This document shows positions 1-31,698 of a stretch of 31,698 bases of DNA, piece after piece. The number at the start of each line of letters is the position of its first letter. The stretch's first letter is position 1. The DNA is taken from positions 1 to 31,698 of IMG/VR virus record IMGVR_UViG_2565956729_000013; one strand, written 5' to 3'. A program made the position numbers and the translations under genes. The notes beneath the pieces were generated by a model that was not told the DNA's origin, did no database searches, and saw only the letters and a list, made by a program, of their open reading frames with translations. The stretch is from a virus. Taxonomy: Duplodnaviria; Heunggongvirae; Uroviricota; Caudoviricetes.

Positions 1-612
1 TTTTTTTATCAGTGCTGCAACCTGATTTAGTGTGCCCGTATAAAAAAAACGCCACACCGGACACGTGTTTTTCTGAATTGCGGCCTGCTGGTCGGTGATT
101 TCCTGTAGTGCCTTATCTCTCGCGATTCTGAACTGATTCAGAGACGAGGATAATGTTTCCGGAGATACAGCGGTCGGGATCGCAGCCTGCGCAATAGTCG
201 CTGCCCGCGTCATGCTGCGGATGGTCTGTGTGGACAGCGTGACCTCTGCAGGAAGTGTGGTTACAGGTTTTGCAGGGAGCTGCATTTTACTCACGGCCAG
301 CGAAAGCTGGCTGGAGATCATGCGGGACATTCTTCCCACTTCCGGCAATGGAAGTGCACCTGAAAACTGTCTGGCCAGTGATAAAAACTCGCCTGCAGAC
401 GGGGCGCAAAATAACAGCGCCACAACGTCTTTTTCAGTGCTTTCTGTCAGATAAGGTAAAAGCGCGGATACAGCATTATCCGGGCTGAGATAACGCCCCG
501 ATGGTGTAATGTTTCCCGTATTTTCTGACCATGGATGGAGGCAAACCATTGAACAGGTGATGGCCATGGGGGCCGGGCGCAGAATGGCGTGCTCCCATAC
601 AGAATATTTCAT
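1..612 (-). CDS. hypothetical protein, 3' end outside window (at least 203 aa)
   Basis: ATG at 612..610 (MKYSVWEHAIL...) preceded by AGGA-type RBS; frame stays open to position 1 by manual translation. Absent from ORF track because no stop lies in the window. Directly downstream of second fibre gene. Confidence 0.5.
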   Translation of the reverse strand, partial: MKYSVWEHAILRPAPMAITCSMVCLHPWSENTGNITPSGRYLSPDNAVSALLPYLTESTEKDVVALLFCAPSAGEFLSLARQFSGALPLPEVGRMSRMISSQLSLAVSKMQLPAKPVTTLPAEVTLSTQTIRSMTRAATIAQAAIPTAVSPETLSSSLNQFRIARDKALQEITDQQAAIQKNTCPVWRFFYTGTLNQVAALIKK

Positions 613-636: not shown

Positions 637-3165
637 TTATCCCATTCCGTTCTGACGCAACGTTGTCCCTGCAAGTGTTTTTATAACCACAACACAGGGG
701 AGCAACCCATTATCTGCGCCGGCAATTTCTTCCAGTGTTGACATATCCAGTGCATAGTAAGGTTTATCAGGCATCACCACCTGTATTCCGATAGTGATTG
801 TTCGCGCATTTGCAGAGACAGAGCTGACAAAATACTGCGCTGGAATGTACTGTCGGTTCTGGTTCTGATAGAGATAACGCGGCTCAATCTGCGCTGAAAC
901 AGCGATTCCGATGCCGCCAACTGAGGATTGCCCGACGGGGTTTGATACATCCAGCTTCAGGGTATAAACACGCGAACCATCGGGCAGGCTTTTAAATGAA
1001 TCCAGACTGGAGTTCAGGGTGCTTACAAGCATTTTGGGGATGATCGGGTGAGCGCCATCAACAAACAGAGATTCTGATTGTTTTTTCAATAAATTTGTAG
1101 CAGCAGAAGAAACTGCAGGTACAAAGTTTCTGTGCCATGTTTGCGTTGTTGCATTGTACGTAAATGTAACGTTTTTCCCTGCAAATAACGCTTCCGGAGC
1201 ATCTGAAACCTGCGCATCCTGCGTAAGAAATGATGTTCTCGTCACGTCCCTTTTCGGTGTGATTGACAGGCGGCAACCATCAACCAGCCCCGGCGCTATT
1301 TTGAACTGGAGATATGAAAGTGCAGAGTCATTATCAATAAACAATACGGTGTCATTGTTGAGGTTATCCACAACCACCTGGGCGTTATTGACGGGGGTAA
1401 TGTGCCGGATTTCTCTTTCCGGAAAGACAATATCTTCATCTCCAACAACGGAGCGACCATTAATTCGTATAAAGTCGCGTGTACTCATGCAGGGGACTGA
1501 TCCCCATGCTGAAACTGACATTGCTGATGCAATATCTGAAATTGTTACGGCGGCAGTTTTTCTGATCTGCAGACGACGGAGAGCTGTTGTTGCGGCGGTC
1601 TGTGAGGCTGTAACTTTTGCCACGAATGCAAAAAAGTCGCTCATGGCGAAAGTATCAATGCCTGCGTAATCCGATGTAAATAAATCGGGATAATCTTTCT
1701 GGATGGCATCCAGAACGGATAGTCCATATTGTGCCTGTTCAGCAGGCGTATTCAGCACACCAAAGCGCCACGGAGCCACAGAGAATCGGTCTTTTTGCAC
1801 AAAACGCGCATCGCCCGGGGTATCGGGGTAATCAGCTTCATTGTAATACGTCTTGAATCTGTTCTGGCCCGGAACAAATAATGCCAGCAACCCTGTTTTA
1901 ATTGTTTTCATTGCGTTGGAATATTGCGAGGCAGCATCAGAGTCATTAACCAGTCCGGCCAGAAAGACCAGGGCCCGTAAACCGGCATACACTTCGGCAT
2001 TATCCTGACAAAAACATTGCGCGTAATGAGTATTACCGGGAGCAACGTTTCCCTGAAAGACGTTTACCAGATTTGCGTCAGTATTTAGCTGACGTAAAAT
2101 ATTATTTTCCGCTACCAGTCTGATAATTTCCCATCTGGAATGATTGCCGAGCCCTGAAGGGGTCTGTAACCACGAAGCGTCTGCAATTTCAGCAATACAG
2201 GCAAACCAGAGGGATGGGTAACTGTCTGTAGAATCAGGGGCAACCGGTGAATATAAATCAGCGGCCACATCGGTAAAGAACCATGACCATGATGACGGGA
2301 TCTCTTTACTGGTCTTCCCGAGACATTCAAGAACAGCGGAACCTGTATAAATAAACTCACCTTGTAAGATGCTACTGATATCAGGTGTGGTTTCTCCAGT
2401 AATGCCGGCGATATTTACAAAAAATAGCGTGCTGTTAATCATCACATGCTGTCCGGCTTCATAGCGGAAATTCGTCATGAATGGCGCTGTTATACCGAGA
2501 CGAAAGGCTTTTTCACAAATAACGAGTCTGTCCCTGAGAGAAAAGGCTTTACCTTCGCTTTCATACATTGCAAGAAACAAAAAATACCAGTTAATACCCC
2601 CGGTTGAATTAAGATAGCGCCAGATCCCTGAATAACGCCCGTGGGTTATCTGCATGGACAAAAACTGCTTATTAGCTTCGGTAACCGCATAACGGGTTGA
2701 TACTGCTATGTGATCGCTGATAAAACCCTGAATTGTTTTCAGCTCCTGCGAGATGTCTGTTTGCCAGCTTTCAGGAGGAACAGTAATGTGTGCAGCCTGA
2801 GCCAGTCCGCTATAAATAACAGCAAAATTGCGGATAAGTGTTTCGCCGGTCAGTTTGTGACGAACCGGGGTTTTAATTACGCCGCAGAGTGTGTTGCTGG
2901 GTTGATGGACCAGGCAAATCCAGTCGTAAGTGAATGTCTCGTTATCAGCAACAACGGCACTACAGACAATGCTGTTTGGATCCAGTTTTCCATAGCGCAG
3001 ATTATTTACCGTGTGTGTGATTTTTTCAGGAGGGACAACTTCATCATTTCTGGATGGTTCCCTTTCCATCAGTGCAAAAACAATGGAGTCAGGTCGCGCC
3101 GGTAAATTACTGGCGGCACATTCAGCAACCCATTTCTCAAATGCTTTCGTCAACAGCGCGCTCAT
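637..3165 (-). CDS. second tail fibre / tailspike-like protein (842 aa)
   Basis: N-terminal ~150 aa alignable by eye with the N-terminus of the H-like fibre at 3725..5593 (e.g. KWVAECAASNLPARPDSIVFA vs HWCANQLISGKPARPDTFVFA); C-terminal ~700 aa unrelated. Start ATG overlaps the Tfa stop (TAATG). Confidence 0.75.
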   Translation of the reverse strand: MSALLTKAFEKWVAECAASNLPARPDSIVFALMEREPSRNDEVVPPEKITHTVNNLRYGKLDPNSIVCSAVVADNETFTYDWICLVHQPSNTLCGVIKTPVRHKLTGETLIRNFAVIYSGLAQAAHITVPPESWQTDISQELKTIQGFISDHIAVSTRYAVTEANKQFLSMQITHGRYSGIWRYLNSTGGINWYFLFLAMYESEGKAFSLRDRLVICEKAFRLGITAPFMTNFRYEAGQHVMINSTLFFVNIAGITGETTPDISSILQGEFIYTGSAVLECLGKTSKEIPSSWSWFFTDVAADLYSPVAPDSTDSYPSLWFACIAEIADASWLQTPSGLGNHSRWEIIRLVAENNILRQLNTDANLVNVFQGNVAPGNTHYAQCFCQDNAEVYAGLRALVFLAGLVNDSDAASQYSNAMKTIKTGLLALFVPGQNRFKTYYNEADYPDTPGDARFVQKDRFSVAPWRFGVLNTPAEQAQYGLSVLDAIQKDYPDLFTSDYAGIDTFAMSDFFAFVAKVTASQTAATTALRRLQIRKTAAVTISDIASAMSVSAWGSVPCMSTRDFIRINGRSVVGDEDIVFPEREIRHITPVNNAQVVVDNLNNDTVLFIDNDSALSYLQFKIAPGLVDGCRLSITPKRDVTRTSFLTQDAQVSDAPEALFAGKNVTFTYNATTQTWHRNFVPAVSSAATNLLKKQSESLFVDGAHPIIPKMLVSTLNSSLDSFKSLPDGSRVYTLKLDVSNPVGQSSVGGIGIAVSAQIEPRYLYQNQNRQYIPAQYFVSSVSANARTITIGIQVVMPDKPYYALDMSTLEEIAGADNGLLPCVVVIKTLAGTTLRQNGMG

Positions 3166-3722
3166 TATTTTTTATTCTCGTTAATATCCTGCGGTAATTC
3201 CGGCCATACAATTGTGGCATACGATGCTTTATCTGTAACCTGGCTGAATGTCATCTCCCGTAACGTTTTTGTATAAATACGGCAGGCTTTCAGTTTTTCC
3301 CTGTCTTCGTCGCTGATTAATCCCAGCAGCAGGTCTTTTTCCCATTCGCTGGTCATGATACTGGCCTGTTTTAACAGTGCATCACGCTCATCTTCCGCTT
3401 TAAGTTTGTAGTCGAAGATAAAATTGCCATCGCGGTAAAACCAGTAACCAGGCGCGGTAATACGGCGATTAGCGGTAATATCCGGAACTTCAATAACACT
3501 GGCGTTACGGGGTTCAATGCCTGTCACATCCTTACCGACCCACACCACGCGCCCGTCCCCGGAGTAAACCATTTTTATTGTGTCACTGGCAAAGTTCTTC
3601 TGTTCTTCATACCAGTTTTTGCCGTCTTCCGAAAAAAGCCAGGTGACACCATATTGTTTTGTCAGCTGATATTGTTCCGCGGTTTTCGGATTACCCGCAG
3701 TAATATTTTTTAAATGTAACAT
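3165..3722 (-). CDS. tail fibre assembly chaperone (Tfa, P2 G-like)
   Basis: 185 aa ORF immediately downstream of the H-like fibre gene (2-nt gap); size and position typical of Tfa. Confidence 0.75.
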   Translation of the reverse strand: MLHLKNITAGNPKTAEQYQLTKQYGVTWLFSEDGKNWYEEQKNFASDTIKMVYSGDGRVVWVGKDVTGIEPRNASVIEVPDITANRRITAPGYWFYRDGNFIFDYKLKAEDERDALLKQASIMTSEWEKDLLLGLISDEDREKLKACRIYTKTLREMTFSQVTDKASYATIVWPELPQDINENKK

Positions 3723-3724
3723 TG

Positions 3725-5593
3725 TTAAACACTCGCCACGTTATACCAGGTGCCATTAATCAGTTTCTGAAGCGGACGGTAATACACGCCGCCGATGTTA
3801 TCTGCCGAATTACTTCCGGTTTCCTGCACATTAATACCGGATAACCCGTGGCCTGAAGGTGAGCGAAATGTCCAGGATACCTGGTTACCTCCCGGGTTGT
3901 AATACATTTCGGAACCATAACGCACATCCTGCACGCCGCCATTTCGCTGCTGATAACGGGCATCGAAATTTCCATAGTTTGATGGGGTCATCTGTCCGTT
4001 TACAGCGAATGTGATACTGCCATCGGTATTTCTCTGGCTGTAAAAATGCCAGCCGGAATCATCACCAAGCTCTGCAACTACAGGTCGGGATGAATTACCC
4101 CATAAATTAAACGTTGCGTTTTTCGTGGAGTTGTTGTCGCTGGATAACGTGAATTTTTTAGCATTTCCGGCCTGAATATTTTTTAACGCTATTGCCACAC
4201 CATTCTGGAAACGAAATACATGCTGTCCATTCGCATAAACATCCAGAATGCCGTCGCCGTTTTGTTTTATACCTGTATCGTTATCCCCGAAAGCAATTGA
4301 GTTTCCGCCCAGCGCGTTCTGAACGCCGATACCCAGCGCACCATTGACCTGAGAACCGCCGCCAACAGACACTTTATGCGACATGGATATTTCACCCGTC
4401 CGCAGATTAATAGTGAACGGTCGAAGTGGACCAATATCGCCATTCTCGCCCTGACCTTCACTGGTAGGGATAAGGTGCAGGCACTCTTCCGAACGACGAA
4501 AAATCAGACCAAAGGCTTCGTTGAAAATCCTCAGCGCATTAACACCACGGATTTTCAGTTCCCCGGTCATGGTGTCGCCGTCACGCTCAACAGCGCCTTT
4601 TGCCTTATCCATTGCGGCTTTTACTGCCTTTGATGTGGCGGCGCGGTCTTCTGCGTCGCTGTCGGTGGAGTTGCTGTACTGCGCAAAGCCTTTCTCCTTC
4701 AGTGTTGCGTCCGGATGACGGCGGGATTTTTCGTGCTCTGCCAGTGCATTGCTTTGTTCTTCATCGGGCGTCTGTGGACGTAAATCCTGTAAGCCTTCTG
4801 ATGTCAGTTTCGCAAGTGGCGCGACAAAGTGTCGGAAGCCGTTACCGTCTGTATAGGACGCATGTTCCTGGCGGGCGCAGAACGTAAAAACGGTATTCCA
4901 TTCGCCGGTAACAAATCCCTGCCAGCTTGCATCAATCCAAATGGTATCCCCGACCGCAGCCGGCAGGCTGTAAGGTTCGCGCAGACTGACGCGCAGACCT
5001 CCCACATAACCCACGCCGGCGGCAACAGTAGCGGTACCATCCTGATAGCTGACCTGAAAACCATCCCCCAGAAAAGCGGCTTCACCGTAGTGATCAAACG
5101 CCAGCAGCCGGCGGGCCTCATCCATTCCTGCAAGGCGTGCAGTGAAATCAATCTGCCAGACATCAGCACTGACATCGATATGCATTGCTGCGGCTGCGCC
5201 GTCAAACTCCATGGAAAATGTGCGGATCAGGTTGTTTCCCTGTACGCCGTTCGCTGTTTTAATTTTTTGCTGACGAGGTGTGTGTGCAATCATGCAGAGC
5301 ACGCCGCTTTCTTCGTTCAGCAGACCGATCCAGTTGTATTCGAAGTCGCCGACTGTCGTGTCCAGAATGATGGAAAACGCGGTCGCGTTCGGCGACAGGA
5401 GGCCGTACTGGGTGACCGGCGCACGATACTGAATCATGGATTCATCAGGGAGTATCTCATCGCGGGGGATCTCTGCGGATTCATCCTGTCCCGGAATATA
5501 TGCAAAAACAAATGTATCCGGGCGCGCAGGTTTTCCACTGATGAGCTGATTCGCACACCAGTGTTCGTACTGTTCAGTAATAATCGTGCTCAT
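3725..5593 (-). CDS. tail fibre protein (P2 H-like)
   Basis: 622 aa; conserved fibre N-terminal domain plus Gly-rich repetitive C-terminal region; start overlaps upstream stop (ATGA). Confidence 0.85.
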   Translation of the reverse strand: MSTIITEQYEHWCANQLISGKPARPDTFVFAYIPGQDESAEIPRDEILPDESMIQYRAPVTQYGLLSPNATAFSIILDTTVGDFEYNWIGLLNEESGVLCMIAHTPRQQKIKTANGVQGNNLIRTFSMEFDGAAAAMHIDVSADVWQIDFTARLAGMDEARRLLAFDHYGEAAFLGDGFQVSYQDGTATVAAGVGYVGGLRVSLREPYSLPAAVGDTIWIDASWQGFVTGEWNTVFTFCARQEHASYTDGNGFRHFVAPLAKLTSEGLQDLRPQTPDEEQSNALAEHEKSRRHPDATLKEKGFAQYSNSTDSDAEDRAATSKAVKAAMDKAKGAVERDGDTMTGELKIRGVNALRIFNEAFGLIFRRSEECLHLIPTSEGQGENGDIGPLRPFTINLRTGEISMSHKVSVGGGSQVNGALGIGVQNALGGNSIAFGDNDTGIKQNGDGILDVYANGQHVFRFQNGVAIALKNIQAGNAKKFTLSSDNNSTKNATFNLWGNSSRPVVAELGDDSGWHFYSQRNTDGSITFAVNGQMTPSNYGNFDARYQQRNGGVQDVRYGSEMYYNPGGNQVSWTFRSPSGHGLSGINVQETGSNSADNIGGVYYRPLQKLINGTWYNVASV

Positions 5594-6225
5594 GCTTCGT
5601 CTGCCTGTAATGTGTAATGCTCCACGGACAGGCCGTAATGTCCTGCCTGTAGCGAAGCGGTTAACCAGATGGTGTCCTTTCTCACCGTTGCTTCTGCTGT
5701 GTGATACCTGTAATGGCCATCAAATGTGCCGGCTGTCAGCCGGGCAGTGGTTGTATTGATTACCTGAAAGAAATAGCGCCTGCAGGTACGGCCATACTGG
5801 CGCACGAGCTGCATCATCAGGGCATTGTTTTCGCTTAACTGGGTGTCATTGATGCGCAGTAAAATAACGTCCCAGTCATGCTGCAACTGTCGTTCCAGGG
5901 TTTTTACCTCTCCCACGCCAAGACGCTTAAAGATGCGTTCGAAGCCGGCACGTTCGCCCGAGTCCTGAGCGTTGATAAACGCGTGTTTTACCCTTAAGCG
6001 AAATAATGAAACTGGCTCCCCACTGAAGCGGGTGATGTTGCGCTGATAGGCCAGCAGGTTAAGCAGAGGCTCTGCGCAGGTATCAACATCAATTTGCTGT
6101 AGTGGCCATGTCAGCCAGCTGTAGACCTTCTCCCAGTAACGATGTGAAGAATGTGCCAGTGTTAATGGCTCTCCCTTGTTCATCCAGGTTGGGAGAGGGA
6201 ATTCGGGCATCTCCGGAATATTCAT
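5590..6225 (-). CDS. tail/baseplate protein (P2 I-like or Mu gp48-like)
   Basis: True ATG at 6225 (MNIPEMPEF...) overlaps the upstream stop as ATGA; ~211 aa; sits between J-like and fibre genes. Confidence 0.7.
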   Translation of the reverse strand: MNIPEMPEFPLPTWMNKGEPLTLAHSSHRYWEKVYSWLTWPLQQIDVDTCAEPLLNLLAYQRNITRFSGEPVSLFRLRVKHAFINAQDSGERAGFERIFKRLGVGEVKTLERQLQHDWDVILLRINDTQLSENNALMMQLVRQYGRTCRRYFFQVINTTTARLTAGTFDGHYRYHTAEATVRKDTIWLTASLQAGHYGLSVEHYTLQADEA

Positions 6226-7406
6226 GACCCCACCTCCACGATAAGGGATTCCAGGCGAGGCACAGCCAGGTCGCTGAGAATATCCGGAAGGGAAAACGTG
6301 ACCGATTCCACCTGCGGAAATACCTGGTGGATCTCTTCGCCCAGTCGGGACATGCTGAAACGGCTGTACGGCCATGTTTTCTGAACGTCATAATCGCTGT
6401 TTTCGCGAAACGCACAGCGGACCAGATTCTCTACGTTGCGTAATAAAGCCTGTATCTCTTCAGCGTTGAGGTTCAGTGTTGCATACAGCCAGAGTGTCAC
6501 GGTCAGGGCATGGCGCGTTTCAGGCATGGAAAAACAGCGCAAATCATCGCCGTGTCCGTGATGACCTTCATCGTTAATAAATGCGTTTACTGCATCAACG
6601 AACGGTCCGGATGCGATGCCGGTATCCAGCAGAATGTAAGCGTTTGCTGTGCCGGGGCCGCGTGGTGCGTCATGCAAAAAATAGATGCGGTCGGCACTGA
6701 TGCCGGCAACACCGGCAATTAATCCCCGGTAAACAGCGTCGGTGTGATAAGCACCGGCAAGATTAAACTGATTGCGAACGCGATCACGCAGTTCGTCGTC
6801 GCTTTCTTCGTTGGCCCCCGGCGTGGTCAGCCAGTTTTCGTCGTTCTCAACGCCGGCGATACCATTAATCGCCACAGGAAGAATGCGGTAATACCCCGGC
6901 GCGAGGTTAAACCCGGCTCCGGCCTGTTCAGCAGAAACATCGATGTTCATGCTGAGTGTTCCTGCCGGAATAATGGTATCCCTGACAACGGTCAGCGTAT
7001 AAATCACGCCGTTAATGCGTTCTGTCTGAATCTGCGTACCAGCCGGTACGGTGACCGCGTGATCAATGTCGTCTTTTGTGAAACGAATCACGCCAGCTGC
7101 GTGCGTGGCAGCCTTGCGCTGCAGGTTTACCGCCCATGCGAAAACATCCACAAATACACCGCTGGCACTTACCAGAAACAGGTTTTTCATTACCACATTA
7201 ACCAGTGCATCTTTAAGCCACATCACGGGCTTTGTGGTAATGGCTGTAATCAACCGCCAGAACGGCGACATGCGGGATGTGTTAGTGATAAGCCCTTCGT
7301 CTTTTACGATGGCCTCAAATTCAGTGCGCGCCTGTTCTTCTGTTACCGGCATGCCGTTATCAGCCAGAATGCGCTCGTAATCTGCGGTTGGTTTGCCGTT
7401 AATCAT
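6222..7406 (-). CDS. baseplate J-like protein
   Basis: 394 aa; ATG at 7406 (track start at 7409 is TTG); position and size fit the baseplate wedge J/gp47 family. Confidence 0.7.
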   Translation of the reverse strand: MINGKPTADYERILADNGMPVTEEQARTEFEAIVKDEGLITNTSRMSPFWRLITAITTKPVMWLKDALVNVVMKNLFLVSASGVFVDVFAWAVNLQRKAATHAAGVIRFTKDDIDHAVTVPAGTQIQTERINGVIYTLTVVRDTIIPAGTLSMNIDVSAEQAGAGFNLAPGYYRILPVAINGIAGVENDENWLTTPGANEESDDELRDRVRNQFNLAGAYHTDAVYRGLIAGVAGISADRIYFLHDAPRGPGTANAYILLDTGIASGPFVDAVNAFINDEGHHGHGDDLRCFSMPETRHALTVTLWLYATLNLNAEEIQALLRNVENLVRCAFRENSDYDVQKTWPYSRFSMSRLGEEIHQVFPQVESVTFSLPDILSDLAVPRLESLIVEVGS

Positions 7407-20536: not shown

Positions 20537-20591
20537 AACCCGGAACGGGCGCACAAAGAATTTGCGCACCCGTTCCGGGTTTTCTTATTTA
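20537..20591 (+). terminator. rho-independent terminator after ogr
   Basis: Near-perfect 16-18 bp GC-rich stem (AACCCGGAACGGGCGCAC / GCGCACCCGTTCCGGGTT) followed by TTTTCTTATTT. Confidence 0.7.
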
Positions 20592-20944
20592 ATGGCAGAC
20601 AACTGATAATTTGTGTCTTCCTGCAGGCTGGTTAAAGAAATATTATCCAGTGCAGCCAGAATAACGTGCTGTGTATATAATCCGGAACATTTCATTGCCC
20701 GGACAATATCACCAACACTGTAATTTTCTTTTGTCGGGATATATCCACCACCCGGGCCGCGTGTGGCTTTTACCAGGCTACTTTCCCGTAAATATCTGAA
20801 TATTTGCTCCAGATATGACAGTGACACGGTTTCTTTGCTTAATTGCCGGAGCGAGATTGGCTTTCCGGTGTACTGTTTCACAAATTTAATCATTACCATA
20901 ACTGCAACTGATGCACGCTGGCTTCCGGAATTATCTTTCATCAT
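20585..20944 (-). CDS. Rrf2-family transcriptional regulator
   Basis: Signature ISLSYLEQIFRYLRESSLVKATRGPGGGY; ~119 aa from the MMKDNSG start; lacks the IscR-type Cys cluster; AT-rich DNA. Confidence 0.8.
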   Translation of the reverse strand: MMKDNSGSQRASVAVMVMIKFVKQYTGKPISLRQLSKETVSLSYLEQIFRYLRESSLVKATRGPGGGYIPTKENYSVGDIVRAMKCSGLYTQHVILAALDNISLTSLQEDTNYQLSAIK

Positions 20945-20955
20945 GATTACTTCCA

Positions 20956-21243
20956 TTAATGGCATAAATTGATGGAGCGGGTCAGTGAATAAAGAGGCAA
21001 TACATTCCATCCCTTAGAGCGCCAGCTGTCTGCAACATCTTTACTTCTTGTTATCGCCGGTATTCCAATAGGATTATTTGCGTGCATCCATGCCACTGGC
21101 TCTGCTTCCAGTGATGCAAGTGCGATTTCCAGTGCGATTAACATATTGTGATCGTCTTCATCAAGACCGAACGGGATGTCTTCGCGCCACGATTTAAACT
21201 CTGTGATTTTACGTTGTAACCATTCTTTGGTAATGGTGGACAT
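20956..21243 (-). CDS. hypothetical protein (95 aa)
   Basis: ATG at 21243 (MSTITKEWLQ...) with AGGAG RBS; track start at 21261 is GTG; AT-rich accessory region. Confidence 0.5.
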   Translation of the reverse strand: MSTITKEWLQRKITEFKSWREDIPFGLDEDDHNMLIALEIALASLEAEPVAWMHANNPIGIPAITRSKDVADSWRSKGWNVLPLYSLTRSINLCH

Positions 21244-21576: not shown

Positions 21577-22536
21577 TTACTCCTTGTCCATTGCGTACAG
21601 CCCATTAACCAGAGCAAACTGTGGCACCCCGTCCGCGATGAAAGTCGCATTAACTCCGCAGGCTTCGCGGATAGCGGGTGCCACAATCTTCGCTCCTCCA
21701 CCTACAACCATCACCCGCCCGTAACCCGAAAAACCCGCCAGCGCGCGGATCACGCGTTGTTTCAGTGTTTCCTCCTTTTCACGAATAACTGCCATCAGGC
21801 TGGCGTAATGTGCGTTATTGTGGATGTGCTGGCGCAGCCAGGCTTCATCGTGGCGATGTTCGATAATGGTATTAGCGATGTGGTGACTGGTACGCATACC
21901 GTTGGTGGCCATCACCGACAGCACGGCATCGGCCATCAGAGAAACGCCTACGTGTGGATCGCAAAACACCTGGCTGATACCTGCCAGTTGCCCCTGAACC
22001 TTTGCCACATCCAGCGTGGTTCCGCCCAAATCCACAATCAGCAGGGATTCAAACGGACTCATGTCAGCCAGCGCTTTAAAGCCAGCCGGAATGGATTCAG
22101 GCATAACCCGCACGTTACGGATAGTGAATGCCTCACCGTTCTGGTACTCCACCGGGCGCATAACGTTCGCTTTTTTGCGGTTGATGTTGGCCATGTCCGG
22201 CTGTGCGTTTGTGTCGAAATACTCGCTCAGTGGCAGGGTGACAACCACATCCACCTCCTGAGGCGTGATGCCTGATTTGACCAGCGCGTGATGAATGGCA
22301 ATGACATTCACATCGCTGTACTGGTATTGCGTGTCGGTCGTCTGGACAAAGCGATCGCTGACCGGATCAAAACCATAGCGCACGCCATCAAGCATGTAGT
22401 TCGCGGGCTGCGTGCCACCGAACGGCGCAGACCATTCCGACTTGAAGCTGTTCGGGCTGATGGCGTTGCGGCGTTCGCCGTTCTCAGTCCATGCCAGTTT
22501 GATGTTGGTGGAGCCGTCGTCGATACAAATTTTCAT
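21577..22536 (-). CDS. parM: ParM/StbA actin-like segregation ATPase
   Basis: 319 aa; motifs IDDGSTNIKLAW, YSDVNVIAIHHAL, VMPESIPAGF, LIVDLGGTTLD, GYGRVMVVGGGA match recalled plasmid R1 ParM along its full length. Confidence 0.85.
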   Translation of the reverse strand: MKICIDDGSTNIKLAWTENGERRNAISPNSFKSEWSAPFGGTQPANYMLDGVRYGFDPVSDRFVQTTDTQYQYSDVNVIAIHHALVKSGITPQEVDVVVTLPLSEYFDTNAQPDMANINRKKANVMRPVEYQNGEAFTIRNVRVMPESIPAGFKALADMSPFESLLIVDLGGTTLDVAKVQGQLAGISQVFCDPHVGVSLMADAVLSVMATNGMRTSHHIANTIIEHRHDEAWLRQHIHNNAHYASLMAVIREKEETLKQRVIRALAGFSGYGRVMVVGGGAKIVAPAIREACGVNATFIADGVPQFALVNGLYAMDKE

Positions 22537-26478: not shown

Positions 26479-27303
26479 TTACTTCACCGGAACAAACGGA
26501 ACAGCGGTGTTGCTGGTCATGTATTGCGGCAGCGTGCCGTTCCATTTGTTGATTGCTTCCAGCTCCATAACGCCGGGATTCTGGCGCAGAGCTTCACCGC
26601 GTAAACGAATGGCGTCGGCTTCAGCCTGGGCTTTTGTGCGAATGGCATCAGCCTGTCCGGCAGCTTCTGCGCGCAACATGTTGGCTTCTGCTTCACGTTG
26701 CTTGACTTCCTGTTCGCGTTGCAGGGTTTTCTGGTTTGCCGTGACTTTGGCATTAATGCTGTCGATAACGGTTGACGGGTACTCCGGCTTACCCACATAT
26801 GAGAGGCTCATTACCTGAATACCGATGGGTGTCATTTCCTCCTGAATGTCTTTAAGAGCTGCATCCAGTAGTTCAGATTTCCCTCCGTCGATAAATTTGT
26901 CGGTGGTCATTTTGCTGGCCAGTCGGTTGAGTGCATCGGCGATCTTCTGGCGCAGGTCAGTGTCGGTAATGTCATCCACGCCTTTGCGGTAGGTCTGAAA
27001 CACTGTAGTAACTTTGGATGGATCAACCTTGTAGGCCACACCGATGTGATAGCCGATGGTTGTGCCGTCACTCATCTGGAAGCTGAACGGCTCATCGTAG
27101 GCCTTCATTTGTTTGAAGGTCGGGAAGATGTAAACCTCGGTATTCCAGCCAGTCCAGTAGCGGCCAACGCCAACCACTTCGCCGACGCCTTTGTCGTCGC
27201 CCAGTTTGTTGACTTTGATGCCCACATTACCTGGCTCAACGCGATCGCAACCAACCAGGAAGATGGCGGCAAAAAGCGGGATAACCGGAAAGAGTTTTTT
27301 CAT
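26479..27303 (-). CDS. SPFH/band-7 (stomatin/prohibitin-like) lipoprotein
   Basis: 274 aa; signal peptide with lipobox LVGC; SPFH-like core then Ala/Glu/Arg-rich coiled-coil tail; start overlaps upstream stop (ATGA). Confidence 0.8.
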   Translation of the reverse strand: MKKLFPVIPLFAAIFLVGCDRVEPGNVGIKVNKLGDDKGVGEVVGVGRYWTGWNTEVYIFPTFKQMKAYDEPFSFQMSDGTTIGYHIGVAYKVDPSKVTTVFQTYRKGVDDITDTDLRQKIADALNRLASKMTTDKFIDGGKSELLDAALKDIQEEMTPIGIQVMSLSYVGKPEYPSTVIDSINAKVTANQKTLQREQEVKQREAEANMLRAEAAGQADAIRTKAQAEADAIRLRGEALRQNPGVMELEAINKWNGTLPQYMTSNTAVPFVPVK

Positions 27304-27814: not shown

Positions 27815-28056
27815 GCTCTGGCTTCCTTCAGTAGCTGGTTAAACATGCGGGTGAGTGGGTTGCTGCACCCGAACGGCATCGGGTTTACCTGGTAAGAGAA
27901 CCGACCGCCTGTTTTGCGTTCTTCTCTGATGACTAAGCCGTCGCGCCAGAGTCGGCGTAACTCCGCATTAATGGTTGTGGTTGGGGTATTCAGTGCTGCG
28001 GCGATTTCTCCACCGCTACAACCCGGATTGGCGGCGATGTAGTCCAGAATGGTCAT
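27811..28056 (-). CDS. winged-helix DNA-binding protein (putative regulator)
   Basis: 81 aa; wHTH-like segment GEIAAALNTPTTTINAELRRLWRDGLV; ATGA coupling to the upstream gene. Confidence 0.55.
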   Translation of the reverse strand: MTILDYIAANPGCSGGEIAAALNTPTTTINAELRRLWRDGLVIREERKTGGRFSYQVNPMPFGCSNPLTRMFNQLLKEARA

Positions 28057-28256
28057 CTGCGTGACTCCTGTACCTGTCGGATAAGGTTCACCCGCGCCAC
28101 ATTCGTGGCGCAGAAGTAAGTGCCGTCAGTGAGATAGATGTGATGTGCATCTTTTTCTGAACGGTGTTTGTCGATAGTGGTAATCAGGCGTTCGTCGACC
28201 TCGTATTCGCGCCCTCTGGAGGTAAAGCGAACGACGGGAAAATGCTTAATTGCCAT
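28053..28256 (-). CDS. hypothetical protein (67 aa)
   Basis: ATG at 28256 (MAIKHFPVV...) with AAGAGAG RBS; track start at 28274 is TTG. Confidence 0.45.
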   Translation of the reverse strand: MAIKHFPVVRFTSRGREYEVDERLITTIDKHRSEKDAHHIYLTDGTYFCATNVARVNLIRQVQESRR

Positions 28257-28279
28257 TACGCTCTCTTTGTCCAATAGCC

Positions 28280-28690
28280 CTATGCGTTAAATACGGCACG
28301 TTGCGTGCCATCAATGAATACGGCCTGAGTGCGTTCTATCAGGCGGAGATTTGTCAGAACTTCTGACTCTCTTACGGGGTAAGGGGTAATCAGGTATTTG
28401 TCCTGCAATTCGGCGATAATGATGTATTGCTGTAGCTCCGAGCCAATAATATGAATAAGGTGTCCAATGTCAGATAAATTCAGTCTGGTGGTTGGTTGTG
28501 TTTTGAGAACCGTTAGTTCAGCATCCTGTTTTTCGATGATTTCGGCTGCTTCGGCGGTTATTCTTGTTATCATCATGGCCGTGGTGGCAGGCCCAATCAT
28601 TCCTGCATTTGTTGCATCCTGAATGGCTCTGTTTGCGGTCTCCGATATATTTTTTAGCGCAGTTACAATGCCTTTTTCTTTTGCGTTCAT
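28280..28690 (-). CDS. hypothetical protein (136 aa)
   Basis: GGAG RBS; preceded by ~95-bp AT-rich gap that may hold an internal promoter. Confidence 0.5.
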   Translation of the reverse strand: MNAKEKGIVTALKNISETANRAIQDATNAGMIGPATTAMMITRITAEAAEIIEKQDAELTVLKTQPTTRLNLSDIGHLIHIIGSELQQYIIIAELQDKYLITPYPVRESEVLTNLRLIERTQAVFIDGTQRAVFNA

Positions 28691-28783
28691 TTTTGTATCT
28701 CCGTTATTTACGTGTGCGAATACCTCCGCTAATGCGGATGGTTTTCACGTTTTCTTATTTAATCTGGTGTTTTGTTTGTGCTG

Positions 28784-28897
28784 TTATTCGTCAGAGAAAA
28801 AACGTTCAATCTTTTTCACTGAATGAATAATTCGCATAATCCCAATGGCGCAGGCCACCGAAATAATCAGAACAATCCATGACATAAATATACTCAT
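28784..28897 (-). CDS. small hydrophobic peptide (37 aa), putative
   Basis: Manually translated: MSIFMSWIVLIISVACAIGIMRIIHSVKKIERFFSDE; ATG overlaps upstream stop (ATGA); below track size cut-off. Confidence 0.35.
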   Translation of the reverse strand: MSIFMSWIVLIISVACAIGIMRIIHSVKKIERFFSDE

Positions 28898-29136
28898 GCG
28901 ATATTCCCCAGCTTATACGGTTCAATATGTTCTCCGCATTCTGCGGCGCAGACGAGTTCGGAAAGTTCGTTAAGTGCATCCAGATCATCAGCGTAAAAAG
29001 CCACGTCATACAGACTCCGGATTGCCCTGGTCAATGAGTCACGGGCTGCACGTTCAGCATGAGCGCCTGATGCACTTAAGCGAAAATAAAAACGCTCAAG
29101 TGCTTTGTTAATGAGAGTTTTATATTCTTTGCCCAT
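28894..29136 (-). CDS. hypothetical protein (80 aa)
   Basis: ORF in the early operon; 13-bp palindrome TTTTCCCGGAAAA just upstream. Confidence 0.5.
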   Translation of the reverse strand: MGKEYKTLINKALERFYFRLSASGAHAERAARDSLTRAIRSLYDVAFYADDLDALNELSELVCAAECGEHIEPYKLGNIA

Positions 29137-29156
29137 TGCATTTTCCCGGAAAACAA

Positions 29157-29411
29157 TTAAACAAAATCTCTTAATGGTTTACCTGATTCAATGCGCTCAA
29201 TTGCATCGTTAATGGCCATGTATGCGGCGTGATCACCTGCATAGCGTGCGCATTCCTGTAGTGACTTTAATCCGCTGATAGTATCGCTTTTTGCTTCCGA
29301 TAAAGGTTTCACCGTATTTAATGCATCACGGGCATTATTATCTATGAGTCGGTGTATGATAAGAGTGTAGGCCGAGGCTATCTCTACCATGTTTTTTGTC
29401 GTTGTTGCCAT
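29157..29411 (-). CDS. hypothetical protein (84 aa)
   Basis: Tightly packed early-operon ORF (3-nt gap to upstream gene). Confidence 0.5.
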   Translation of the reverse strand: MATTTKNMVEIASAYTLIIHRLIDNNARDALNTVKPLSEAKSDTISGLKSLQECARYAGDHAAYMAINDAIERIESGKPLRDFV

Positions 29412-29414
29412 TGG

Positions 29415-29765
29415 TTAATTCCCCCGTGGATGCTGAAAACTACGTCCTGCAATTAAGCGGTCAACCGTGCGTAGCGCTTCGTACAATGTAAAATCCTGTC
29501 CGAACTGATTGTCGCCGTTGCTCAGTGCAAAAATGCGGTTTCCGGTAAACGGATTGCGTGGGCATTTGTGGACCGCGATTCCAGCTTTCTCAATCAGCCA
29601 GGTGTGCTCGCCGATTTGTTTTACGGGGTAGCCATCCGGCGTTGCGTGTGTTTCGCTCAGGCTGTAGCGAGAGTTGCTGCGTGATGCACTGGTAGCGAAA
29701 CGGTTAGCATGGCGTTCTGCACCGTTGCGGAAGCGCTGCTGTGGAGAATTACGCCGCTCCTTCAT
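29415..29765 (-). CDS. hypothetical protein (116 aa)
   Basis: First ORF downstream of cox in the early operon. Confidence 0.5.
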   Translation of the reverse strand: MKERRNSPQQRFRNGAERHANRFATSASRSNSRYSLSETHATPDGYPVKQIGEHTWLIEKAGIAVHKCPRNPFTGNRIFALSNGDNQFGQDFTLYEALRTVDRLIAGRSFQHPRGN

Positions 29766-29802
29766 ATCAAAATACTCCGTCTAAAATGAATTATGGTTTG
29801 GG

Positions 29803-30228
29803 TTATGCTGCTTTACCGCTGATGTTTCTGTTTCGTCTGCCACTTGTTGGCTTAAACAAAAACAGACGGTTTTCCCAGTCGTGCCATTCCTGAGGTGCGT
29901 TTTCGATGAGGCGATCGCATGCTTCATCCCACGCTTTTCTGTTGATGTAGAGTTCAGCGTTTCCGCCTGGCTTGAGAGGGTCCGCCATATACACCGCAGG
30001 TAGCTTTCCTGCTTTTGCCATGCTTACGATGGCATCAACGGTCTTTCCGATATACATCGCAAATCCTTCTTTTGACAGGAGATGCGAGGGATTTTCTGAA
30101 AGTCGAATTTCTTCACGTTCACGTGCTTTGCGTCCTGTTTTTTGATGCTCACCTTCTGGCATTTCTGACAGGTGATCGCATCGTGTTCCGCAAAGTGACT
30201 CAGGCGCGTTTTGAGTGCTTTCTTGCAT
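29803..30228 (-). CDS. cox: Cox-like excisionase / early-promoter repressor
   Basis: GFAMYIGKTVDAIVSMAKAGKLPAVYMADP resembles recalled P2 Cox EFAKLIGKSTGAVRRMIDKGKLPVIDMTDP; ATG at 30228 has GGAGG RBS (alternative ATG at 30162); divergent from C. Confidence 0.7.
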   Translation of the reverse strand: MQESTQNAPESLCGTRCDHLSEMPEGEHQKTGRKAREREEIRLSENPSHLLSKEGFAMYIGKTVDAIVSMAKAGKLPAVYMADPLKPGGNAELYINRKAWDEACDRLIENAPQEWHDWENRLFLFKPTSGRRNRNISGKAA

Positions 30229-30342
30229 CTGATATCCTCCGCTATTGGTGCTTTTTCTAATTGGCACTAGTTGGAACCACTTAGAACATTTGTTTGCTGT
30301 TCATATGTGGTGTTAATCTACACATATGTAGGAGTTTGTCAA
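30229..30342. promoter_or_regulatory. immunity switch region (divergent early and repressor promoters, operator repeats)
   Basis: Three direct repeats at 10-bp phasing (TTGGCAC 30261, TTGGAAC 30271, TTAGAAC 30281) and inverted repeat CATATGTG-N11-CACATATG at 30302..30328; promoter hexamers not assigned. Confidence 0.55.
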
Positions 30343-30636
30343 ATGGACATTCCTCAAAAAATTCGCGTCATGCGTAAATCTGAAGATCTCACTCAGCGGG
30401 AATTCGCTGATATGATTGGGATTTCTTATTCTGCTCTGACCAGTTATGAGTATGGTCGTAACCTTCCTGGCCTTGAGATCACTATCAAGCTTTTCAAGCA
30501 CCCAAGATTTTCTAAATATCGCGACTGGTTTTTGTTTGATGAAGTTGAACCTAAGGCCGGGCAGGTTGTACCGGCTCTCGCACACATTGGGCAAAACGAA
30601 GCGGAATTATCCCGCTCCGGCAAGAAAACTGGTTAA
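30343..30636 (+). CDS. immunity repressor (P2 C-like)
   Basis: 97 aa; RVMRKSEDLTQREFADMIGISYSALTSYEYGR and C-terminal PALAHIGQNEAELSRSGKKTG resemble recalled P2 C; GGAG RBS. Confidence 0.8.
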   Translation: MDIPQKIRVMRKSEDLTQREFADMIGISYSALTSYEYGRNLPGLEITIKLFKHPRFSKYRDWFLFDEVEPKAGQVVPALAHIGQNEAELSRSGKKTG

Positions 30637-30702
30637 CGGTTCACCAGGCATTTATTTCCCAGAGCTGTGATCAAGATGATGTTTTCATTGGAGGGCTTCC
30701 TT

Positions 30703-31698
30703 ATGTCGATTAAGAAGCTCGCTAATGGCAAATTTTGTGTGGACGTGCGGCCAGCTGGATCAGAAGGAAAGAGATTCAGGCGGCGATTTGATACTCGTGG
30801 TGAGGCTGTTTTGTATGAGCGTCATGTATTGCAGCATTACCACGACAAAGGCTGGGTTGATAAGCCAACAGAACGGCGCTCGCTGAGGGAGTTGCTGGAT
30901 TGTTGGTGGTTGTATCACGGTAAAAATCATCCTTACGGTGCGATGGAGCGAGTGCGTATTGCTGCGGTCATTAGTGATCTTGAAAGTATTAATGTTACAC
31001 GCAGTGATCAACTTACTCGTAAAAACATAATTAATTATCGGTTATTGTTGCTTAACCGCGGAATAAAACAATCCACGGTTAATCGTTATTGCGCAATGAT
31101 GAGTGGTTTTTTCACAAAACTAATTGACGCAGAGGAATATTCTGGGGCTAATCCGTTTCATGATGTGAAAAAACTTAATATCAAACAGCCTGAAATGGCT
31201 TATTTGTATCATGAAGATATTCCACGATTACTGGAGTTGTTATTTGGTGATGAATTAAAAGCCGTCTTGTTGTGTCTGGCAACAGGTGGAAGATGGAGTG
31301 AAGTTGCAAATATCAAGGGGGAGCATGTTATTAGCGGCAAAGTCATTTTTATGGAAACCAAAAATGGGAAGCGTCGCGTTATACCTATATCGTCAGAACT
31401 GGAGTGTATGATTAAAACAAAGGCCACTGGTCGTTTAATTTATCCAAGTTATTCTGCTGTCAGAACGGCTATCAGAAAGGTGAGGCCCGATCTTCCTGAA
31501 GGGCAGTCGATACATGTTTTACGGCATACCTTTGCCACTCACTTCATGATTAATGGTGGGAATATCATCACTTTGCAGAGAATACTTGGACATAGCACTA
31601 TTCAGCAGACGATGACCTATGCCCATTTTGCACCGGATTATCTGCAGGATGCTGTGCGTTTTAATCCTGTGGCTGAGTTGTCCAGATATTGCCCATAA
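30703..31698 (+). CDS. int: tyrosine integrase (P2 Int-like)
   Basis: ATG at 30703 (MSIKKLANGKF...) with GGAGGG RBS; C-terminal HVLRHTFATHFMINGGNIITLQRILGHSTIQQTMTYAHFAPDYLQDA nearly matches recalled P2 Int; stop is the last 3 nt of the window. Confidence 0.9.
   Translation: MSIKKLANGKFCVDVRPAGSEGKRFRRRFDTRGEAVLYERHVLQHYHDKGWVDKPTERRSLRELLDCWWLYHGKNHPYGAMERVRIAAVISDLESINVTRSDQLTRKNIINYRLLLLNRGIKQSTVNRYCAMMSGFFTKLIDAEEYSGANPFHDVKKLNIKQPEMAYLYHEDIPRLLELLFGDELKAVLLCLATGGRWSEVANIKGEHVISGKVIFMETKNGKRRVIPISSELECMIKTKATGRLIYPSYSAVRTAIRKVRPDLPEGQSIHVLRHTFATHFMINGGNIITLQRILGHSTIQQTMTYAHFAPDYLQDAVRFNPVAELSRYCP

Follow-up and report, generated by a model that had tools for sequence, protein, structure and literature searches.

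The window analyzed here, a 31,698-nucleotide (nt) stretch covering positions 1 to 31,698 of IMG/VR virus record IMGVR_UViG_2565956729_000013, corresponds to roughly a whole P2/HP1-like (Peduoviridae) prophage, nearly complete, in which an H-type tail fiber gene (fiber 1) and its Tfa chaperone gene are followed by a second, larger fiber gene (fiber 2). On balance, we favor the view that fiber 2 serves an Escherichia coli HP1/P2-like temperate myovirus as an additional, accessory receptor-binding protein. Fiber 1, Tfa, and fiber 2 are three intact, closely packed minus-strand genes, and the positions and sizes given for the two fibers in an earlier note, made from the sequence alone, proved exact. 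The features of the locus are as follows.

5590 to 6225, minus strand: gpI-like baseplate wedge gene (PF09684 Tail_P2_I and phrog_1228), directly upstream of fiber 1
3725 to 5593, minus strand: fiber 1, 622 amino acids (aa), assigned with Pfam and PHROGs
3165 to 3722, minus strand: Tfa chaperone, 185 aa (PF02413, E = 2.8e-22; phrog_136, E = 3.5e-59)
637 to 3165, minus strand: fiber 2, 842 aa, with an end-to-end match to phrog_33169 (unknown function)
2734 to 3165, minus strand: fiber 2 adaptor, residues 1-144, a PF12571 paralogue
1426 to 2733, minus strand: fiber 2 core, residues 145-580, predicted (alpha/alpha)6-barrel, glycoside-hydrolase-like, with a beta-hairpin insert at about residues 225-283
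1135 to 1419, minus strand: fiber 2 beta-sandwich domain 1, residues 583-677
640 to 1119, minus strand: fiber 2 C-terminal beta-sandwich domain, residues 683-842, common to all chaperone-less (type A) occupants of the slot described below
1 to 612, minus strand: 5′ part (204 codons) of gene A, a conserved tail/baseplate-region gene of ~240 aa that runs off the window and forms the downstream border of the slot

The two fibers had been proposed to share about 150 N-terminal residues and to be unrelated thereafter, and pairwise alignment bears this out: BLASTP returned a single significant segment (residues 1-154 of fiber 1 vs 1-142 of fiber 2, 36% identity, E = 1e-23), with all remaining segments at E values of at least 0.86. 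Both shared regions match PF12571, the phage tail-collar N-terminal domain typical of P2 H-type fibers, at 101.8 bits for fiber 1 (residues 3-157, nt 5123-5593) and 38.2 bits for fiber 2, against a gathering cut-off of 23. No solved structure was matched by sequence to the PF12571 domain; the shared region has every appearance of a genuine baseplate-attachment-type adaptor.

Beyond its adaptor, fiber 1 carries a PF03406 fiber repeat (residues 297-335) and then a Mu S-like/T4 gp34-like distal part, the tip of which matches the solved Mu fiber protein S (5yvq, E = 1.7e-19). Tips of the Mu S class require a Tfa/U-type chaperone, and the gene immediately 3′ of fiber 1 encodes a PF02413 protein (79.7 bits vs a cut-off of 22.1) that is predicted to serve fiber 1. 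The claim that only fiber 1 is followed by a Tfa gene also stands, with PF02413 at 3165-3722 and, after fiber 2, gene A, which is not a chaperone gene. Fiber 1 is 44% identical to the SI7 fiber over 358 aa and is, judged from its sequence, a true orthologue of the single H-type tail fiber of related phages. Together with Tfa, it is an ordinary member of the P2 gpH/gpG and Mu S/U group (Peduoviridae; ESSI-2/Seongnamvirus, SI7/Irrigatiovirus, HP1-like tails), sharing with these systems the PF12571 adaptor, the PF03406 repeat, the Mu S-like tip, the PF02413 chaperone, and the order J-I-H-Tfa. Phages of this type have one fiber, whereas the clade to which the window belongs has a second PF12571 gene right after Tfa.

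Two fiber genes in tandem could suggest a recent duplication or an assembly artifact, and other P2-, Mu-, and P1-like phages alternate their fibers through DNA inversion. The two genes, however, share just a 31-nt match at 77% nucleotide identity, and the same architecture recurs in many independent contigs and complete genomes. Both genes lie on the same strand; apart from one 16-nt pair, no more than expected by chance, they have no inverted repeats, and neither an invertase nor a recombinase was found near the fibers. Without inverted repeats beyond chance or an invertase, the locus is not a Mu/P1-type switch; an invertible alternative-fiber system like the Mu G segment or the P1 C segment is effectively refuted, and we give such a switch, an assembly artifact, or a recent tandem duplication almost no credence. 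The adaptor of fiber 2 is 70-96% identical to the adaptors of all other occupants of the slot. These slot adaptors keep the invariant residues of H adaptors, including a W-Q-x-D motif, and all slot occupants also carry, compared with H adaptors, a conserved set of deletions (4, 1, and 6 residues). The slot adaptor belongs to an old, distinct paralogous lineage and is not a local or fresh duplicate.

That fiber 2 sits in an extra position is apparent from gene order. In ESSI-2, SI7, and vB_YenM_324, the order is tape measure protein, DUF2590, J, I, H, and Tfa, followed at once by a ~240-aa gene, a ~180-aa gene, and a ~570-aa baseplate gene. The open reading frame (ORF) that begins at 612 on the minus strand of the window, gene A, is a homologue of the 240-aa gene that directly follows Tfa in these relatives (30% identity between its translation and SI7 gp22, E = 6e-20), and fiber 2 therefore occupies an additional position. 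Using the 240-aa gene as an anchor, we surveyed the slot at 131 loci, 51 of them from a collection with one genome per species and 80 from IMG/VR, and classified the genes upstream of the anchor with hidden Markov models built for this analysis. Distant relatives, in which the anchor is 28-41% identical and which include Xenorhabdus, Photorhabdus, Serratia, Hafnia, Kluyvera, Salmonella, and Citrobacter, are essentially all arranged as I-H-Tfa-anchor with a single fiber. In the clade with an anchor at least 77% identical, which is made up of Escherichia including E. albertii, all informative loci are arranged as I-H-Tfa-second PF12571 gene-anchor. The slot is likewise occupied at loci L005 and L006 and at the RefSeq E. 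coli locus L139, and the slot adaptor is present in 48 of 5,426 complete E. coli genomes (~1%), about as many as carry the phage backbone. Comparison with related prophages thus adds to the earlier note's picture of two fibers, in that fiber 2 turns out to be a swappable slot gene that single-fiber relatives are without.

The cargo of the slot ranges from 285 to 842 aa and falls into three types. Type A occupants (350, 518, or 842 aa) have the same C-terminal domain and come without a chaperone gene. Type B occupants (419-679 aa) are each followed by their own ~190-aa DUF4376/phrog_1141 protein, which, from the usual occurrence of that domain, we take to be a dedicated assembly factor. Type C occupants pair a 285-aa adaptor protein with a separate 352-aa ORF that has no Pfam match; these may be two-polypeptide fibers in which the adaptor and the distal subunit are separate chains. 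This arrangement was seen at L008 (7986-9926), at L075, and at L139 of E. coli RIVM_C019217 (5464-7404), and the 352-aa ORF belongs to phrog_8291, a family of unknown function. In the smallest type A occupant (L061, 350 aa), an adaptor 96% identical to that of the window is joined by a short linker with SPxxTGxPTxPTPP, a classic motif of fibers, to a C-terminal domain 89% identical to that of fiber 2; the version in the window thus has an extra block of ~540 aa between constant ends. These layouts show that entire receptor-binding modules are exchanged at the slot by recombination, in some cases together with a chaperone. At one further locus (L047, 4869-9838), in a metagenome-assembled genome from an uncultured member of the Enterobacteriaceae, a distant relative has come to two fibers by another route: the order is I-H-Tfa-H-Tfa-anchor, a tandem duplication of the whole fiber and Tfa pair in which the second fiber is apparently split over two reading frames.

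Across the clade, the slot adaptor and the 240-aa gene downstream of it vary together in identity (97-99% for the adaptor with 97-98% for the gene, or 70-82% with 78-82%); the adaptor does not follow the H-Tfa block, which recombines independently. This co-variation of adaptor and gene A may come from physical linkage alone, or it may be a sign that the adaptor works together with the downstream proteins.

The earlier note had allowed for a disrupted second gene, and this concern can be set aside: the 842-aa protein has a 100% identical copy in IMG/VR contig L060 and copies at 98% in L005 and 96% in L059, and the exact protein has been deposited from E. coli (e.g. ESK23563.1) under no more specific label than "phage tail protein." The ratio of nonsynonymous to synonymous substitution rates (dN/dS) was ~0.15 for the gene, with values of 0.15-0.16 against the near-identical copies, 0.12-0.15 for the adaptor, and 0.10-0.16 across adaptor, core, beta domain, and C-terminus against several comparators; all modules of fiber 2 are under purifying selection. 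The 90% identity cluster that contains the 842-aa fiber also lists ~400-aa tyrosine integrases, unrelated to it in sequence and length, which looks like a clustering or indexing artifact of the collection.

Expression context places fiber 2 among the tail genes. Its ATG overlaps the Tfa stop codon (TAATG), the gene A ribosome-binding site (AGGAAA) lies 24 nt past the fiber 2 stop codon, and promoter and terminator scans between these genes returned no minus-strand terminator and no promoter above shuffle expectation. Fiber 2 is made from the late tail operon and is translationally coupled to the Tfa gene. These features bear on whether fiber 2 might be non-virion cargo, that is, a moron, lysogenic-conversion, or exclusion factor with a borrowed fiber N-terminus, such as a glycosidase that is secreted or sits in the periplasm and reshapes the surface of the lysogen. 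The guanine-plus-cytosine (GC) content of fiber 2 (~0.45-0.47, below the 0.53-0.57 of the structural module) and the location of the gene close to the end of the element in the related prophage of AH19B041 would fit such a role, but the gene is translationally coupled and lies between structural genes of the tail operon, its adaptor is conserved in all slot occupants and under purifying selection, the same core is joined to three other kinds of fiber adaptor, and fiber 2 has no PADLOC match. We consider non-virion cargo improbable.

BLAST comparison with homologues divides fiber 2 into four separately shuffled modules. Residues 1-144 have counterparts at 72-75% identity in over 80 clusters of slot proteins from E. 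coli and Salmonella, the stretch from residue 145 to ~590 matches E. coli prophage side fibers with a PF08400 adaptor at ~67% identity, residues 583-677 form a ~95-aa unit present in two to three copies in some relatives, and residues 678-842 make up the fourth module. AlphaFold2 modeled residues 160-555, with a predicted local distance difference test score (pLDDT) of ~90, as a bundle of 12 helices into which a beta-hairpin is inserted, and the top 50 Foldseek matches in the PDB were nearly all (alpha/alpha)6 carbohydrate-active enzymes of glycoside hydrolase (GH) families GH78, GH94, GH116, GH52, GH121, GH63, and GH8, at marginal E-values. As modeled, the core is a twelve-helix (alpha/alpha)6 toroid, found where a conventional fiber would have its tip. 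PF22422 (MGH1-like GH) matches 14 of 32 homologues, with a best E of 6e-6, and the 842-aa protein had no match to PDB sequences at E <= 1. Eight acidic residues (D299, D311, D314, D388, E391, E476, D504, and D544) are conserved in at least 90% of the core family at an overall identity of 20-30%, the pattern expected of a candidate active site; by comparison with GH15 topology, and as a lead only, D388/E391 (where helix 6 begins) and D544 (where helix 12 begins) could be the acid/base pair. The beta-hairpin insert (residues ~227-262, ~2380-2485 on the minus strand) gave a weak profile match (E = 0.035) to PDB 1ed7, the chitin-binding domain (carbohydrate-binding module CBM5/12 type) of Bacillus chitinase A1, which hints at an accessory sugar-binding element beside the pocket. 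Both C-terminal domains are beta-sandwiches of lectin-like character that resemble tailspike accessory domains, lectins, and pyocin fiber tips.

The earlier note had speculated that the C-terminal region of the second fiber is a tailspike or an enzymatic domain. The AlphaFold2 and Foldseek results lend support to an enzyme-type fold, while the tailspike half of the suggestion falls away in that a beta-helix of the P22/HK620/K5 type is ruled out by the structure model, and two beta-sandwich domains are to be added to the description. An S74 intramolecular chaperone was likewise rejected, with no Pfam match beyond PF12571 and PF22422 and a C-terminus that is an all-beta sandwich.

The core belongs to a tiny family: a search of 1.84 billion proteins gave 71 representatives at E <= 1e-3, and these family members carry PF08400 side-fiber, T7 fiber (PF03906), PF22337, or PF12571 N-termini. 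Found on such varied adaptors, the core therefore behaves as a receptor-binding-protein module moving between phage morphotypes. The same distal block occurs in E. coli PF08400 side tail fibers (P0002-P0026), at 79% identity over residues 132-842 or, for the core alone, ~67%, and E. coli AH19B041 encodes a 992-aa PF08400 protein with a block like residues 132-842 in a gene that likewise follows a fiber and Tfa pair. These side fibers differ from fiber 2 in having a PF08400 adaptor with or without PF13620 and in belonging to a Mu-like baseplate (AH19B041) or a lambdoid tail. Only 7 of the 5,426 complete E. coli genomes contain the barrel core. In five complete E. coli genomes (XJ34, XJ6-3, RM11911, RM13745, and RM13752; H89-H93), a core copy at ~68% nucleotide identity coincides with no annotated feature, and these copies may be pseudogenes or genes missed in RefSeq.

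Among known enzymes, we compared the core with (alpha/alpha)6 hydrolases of clans GH-L and GH-G (GH15 glucoamylase, glucodextranase, and dextran dextrinase; GH63 YgjK/MGH; GH37 trehalase), from which it differs in its ~10% identity, its beta-hairpin insert, and its embedding in a fiber; it is probably an unclassified family. The core shares its fold class with the alpha/alpha-toroid phage depolymerases, a recognized but rare group that accounts for 11 of 984 cases (~1% of detected folds) in the DepoScope analysis of INPHARED and for 29 of ~3,900 (<1%) in a Klebsiella prophage survey, the toroid cases in both surveys having been counted only and kept out of model training (PMC11326577, PMC12491483). 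In the literature, we found no alpha/alpha-toroid depolymerase on a P2/HP1-like coliphage, none that has been biochemically characterized, and no description of dual fibers in this lineage. A tblastn search of 50,697 deposited phage genomes with the 842-aa protein matched only its first ~160 residues, at 33% identity or less. Dual and branched receptor-binding systems (K1-5/SP6 dual tailspikes, CBA120 TSP1-4, G7C gp63.1/gp66, lambda J + Stf) offer a further comparison; here, by contrast, the two proteins would attach to a temperate P2/HP1-type contractile tail through paralogous copies of one baseplate adaptor, and no separate adaptor protein or branching domain was identified for fiber 1 and fiber 2. 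Each element is already known on its own (dual receptor-binding proteins, modular adaptors, toroid depolymerase folds), whereas their combination, a clade-confined fixed accessory-fiber slot on an HP1/P2-type temperate coliphage with a paralogous adaptor and cargo from a tiny, uncharacterized glycosidase-fold family, was not found in the literature.

Taking these lines of evidence together, fiber 2 probably gives the virus a second means of host-cell recognition. Fiber 2 would trimerize and dock to the baseplate through its PF12571 adaptor, and virions would therefore carry the Tfa-dependent Mu S-like fiber and fiber 2 together; co-display of both fibers on one virion is suggested by operon position, adaptor conservation, and purifying selection. 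The barrel would then bind, and probably hydrolyze, a surface polysaccharide (O-antigen, capsule, or a glycan associated with lipopolysaccharide), and by analogy with GH15/GH63-type barrels the bond cleaved is probably that of an alpha-linked hexose or deoxyhexose. The pair of beta-sandwich domains at the C-terminus would contribute lectin-like binding, with the type A C-terminus folding without a separate chaperone. The predicted outcome is that the glycan layer is penetrated, a secondary receptor is reached, and host range is broadened or altered.

Several observations weigh against this interpretation. The window protein falls below the PF22422 gathering score (17.8 bits for the full protein and 19.1 for the core, vs 27), and a profile of 41 core homologues run against the PDB returned no GH and only chance-level matches (Rb-like protein, E = 3e-4). 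In the dual-fiber clade, the I, J, and downstream baseplate proteins show no extra domain that could offer a second docking site, and the gene lengths equal those of single-fiber relatives. In addition, the backbone was not found in any cultured phage. It is conceivable, if rather unlikely, that the (alpha/alpha)6 barrel has no catalytic activity and acts purely as a lectin-like domain for receptor binding.

The baseplate observations bear on how fiber 2 would be attached. With no added domain in the baseplate proteins, homologous adaptors that retain the same invariant residues, and both genes in one operon without a switch, fiber 2 might compete with fiber 1 for the same six baseplate sockets, yielding mixed virions and a form of host-range bet-hedging. 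The conserved deletions of the slot adaptor and its mere 36% identity to the H adaptor suggest instead a distinct docking specificity. The adaptor identity also follows the gene A block and not the I/H block (though this may be just physical linkage), and we regard such competition as a minority possibility. Equally tentative is the most far-reaching form of the accessory-fiber interpretation, in which a dedicated second docking position on the P2-type baseplate, possibly involving the 240-aa protein, would be served by a hot-swappable cassette whose cargo here would be an unclassified (alpha/alpha)6 GH depolymerase for an E. coli surface glycan, moving between myovirus, siphovirus, and podovirus adaptors.

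The remainder of the window is consistent with a P2-family prophage. It encodes P2-family capsid, GPO scaffold, terminase, portal, sheath, tube, and tape measure proteins, together with DUF2590, J, and I proteins, a GPA replication protein, and, at the right-hand edge, an integrase. The structural module is ~95% identical to prophages in 41 of the 5,426 complete E. coli genomes, and among cultured phages ESSI-2, the ESSI2_ev phages, SI7, and vB_YenM_324 come closest, with ~67-70% nucleotide identity across portions of it. The window opens inside the 240-aa tail gene and closes exactly with the stop codon of the integrase, and it therefore lacks ~3 kb of the element (the rest of gene A, the 191-aa and 565-aa baseplate genes, and the attachment site, att). 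The gpI-like gene appears in the ORF list as a 261-aa form (5590-6375, minus strand) that overlaps gene J by ~150 nt and is probably an artifact of in-frame start codons upstream; a 211-aa gene call in the 98%-related locus L005 points to the equivalent of 6225 as the likely start.

Several other genes fall outside the tail region. A full ParM/StbA actin-like plasmid-segregation ATPase is encoded at 21577-22536 on the minus strand (PF06406, E = 1.8e-82; PF21523, E = 3.9e-68), which is unexpected in an integrating phage and could point to an episomal (phage-plasmid) phase or to partition of the excised replicon. An Rrf2-family transcription regulator (20585-21010, minus strand) and an SPFH/Band 7 protein (26479-27303, minus strand) lie among the early/accessory genes, and neither matched a PADLOC defense model. 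A low-GC stretch (28000-31698, 0.43-0.48 vs 0.52-0.58 elsewhere) adjoins the integrase (30667-31698, plus strand); Pfam and PADLOC searches returned nothing for its small ORFs, and the stretch could be a moron or defense hotspot.

In conclusion, a single fiber with its chaperone or an invertible switch is the usual explanation for the host range of temperate coliphages, and a fixed accessory slot would represent a third host-range strategy, in which whole receptor-binding cassettes are swapped on a small P2/HP1-type tail. Such a slot would also suit the engineering of P2-like particles, or of tailocin-like particles of the same tail type, as a natural scaffold. If the barrel is active, phage depolymerase folds would extend beyond beta-helices and propellers, and the core could found a new family of carbohydrate-active enzymes directed at a specific glycan of E. 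coli.

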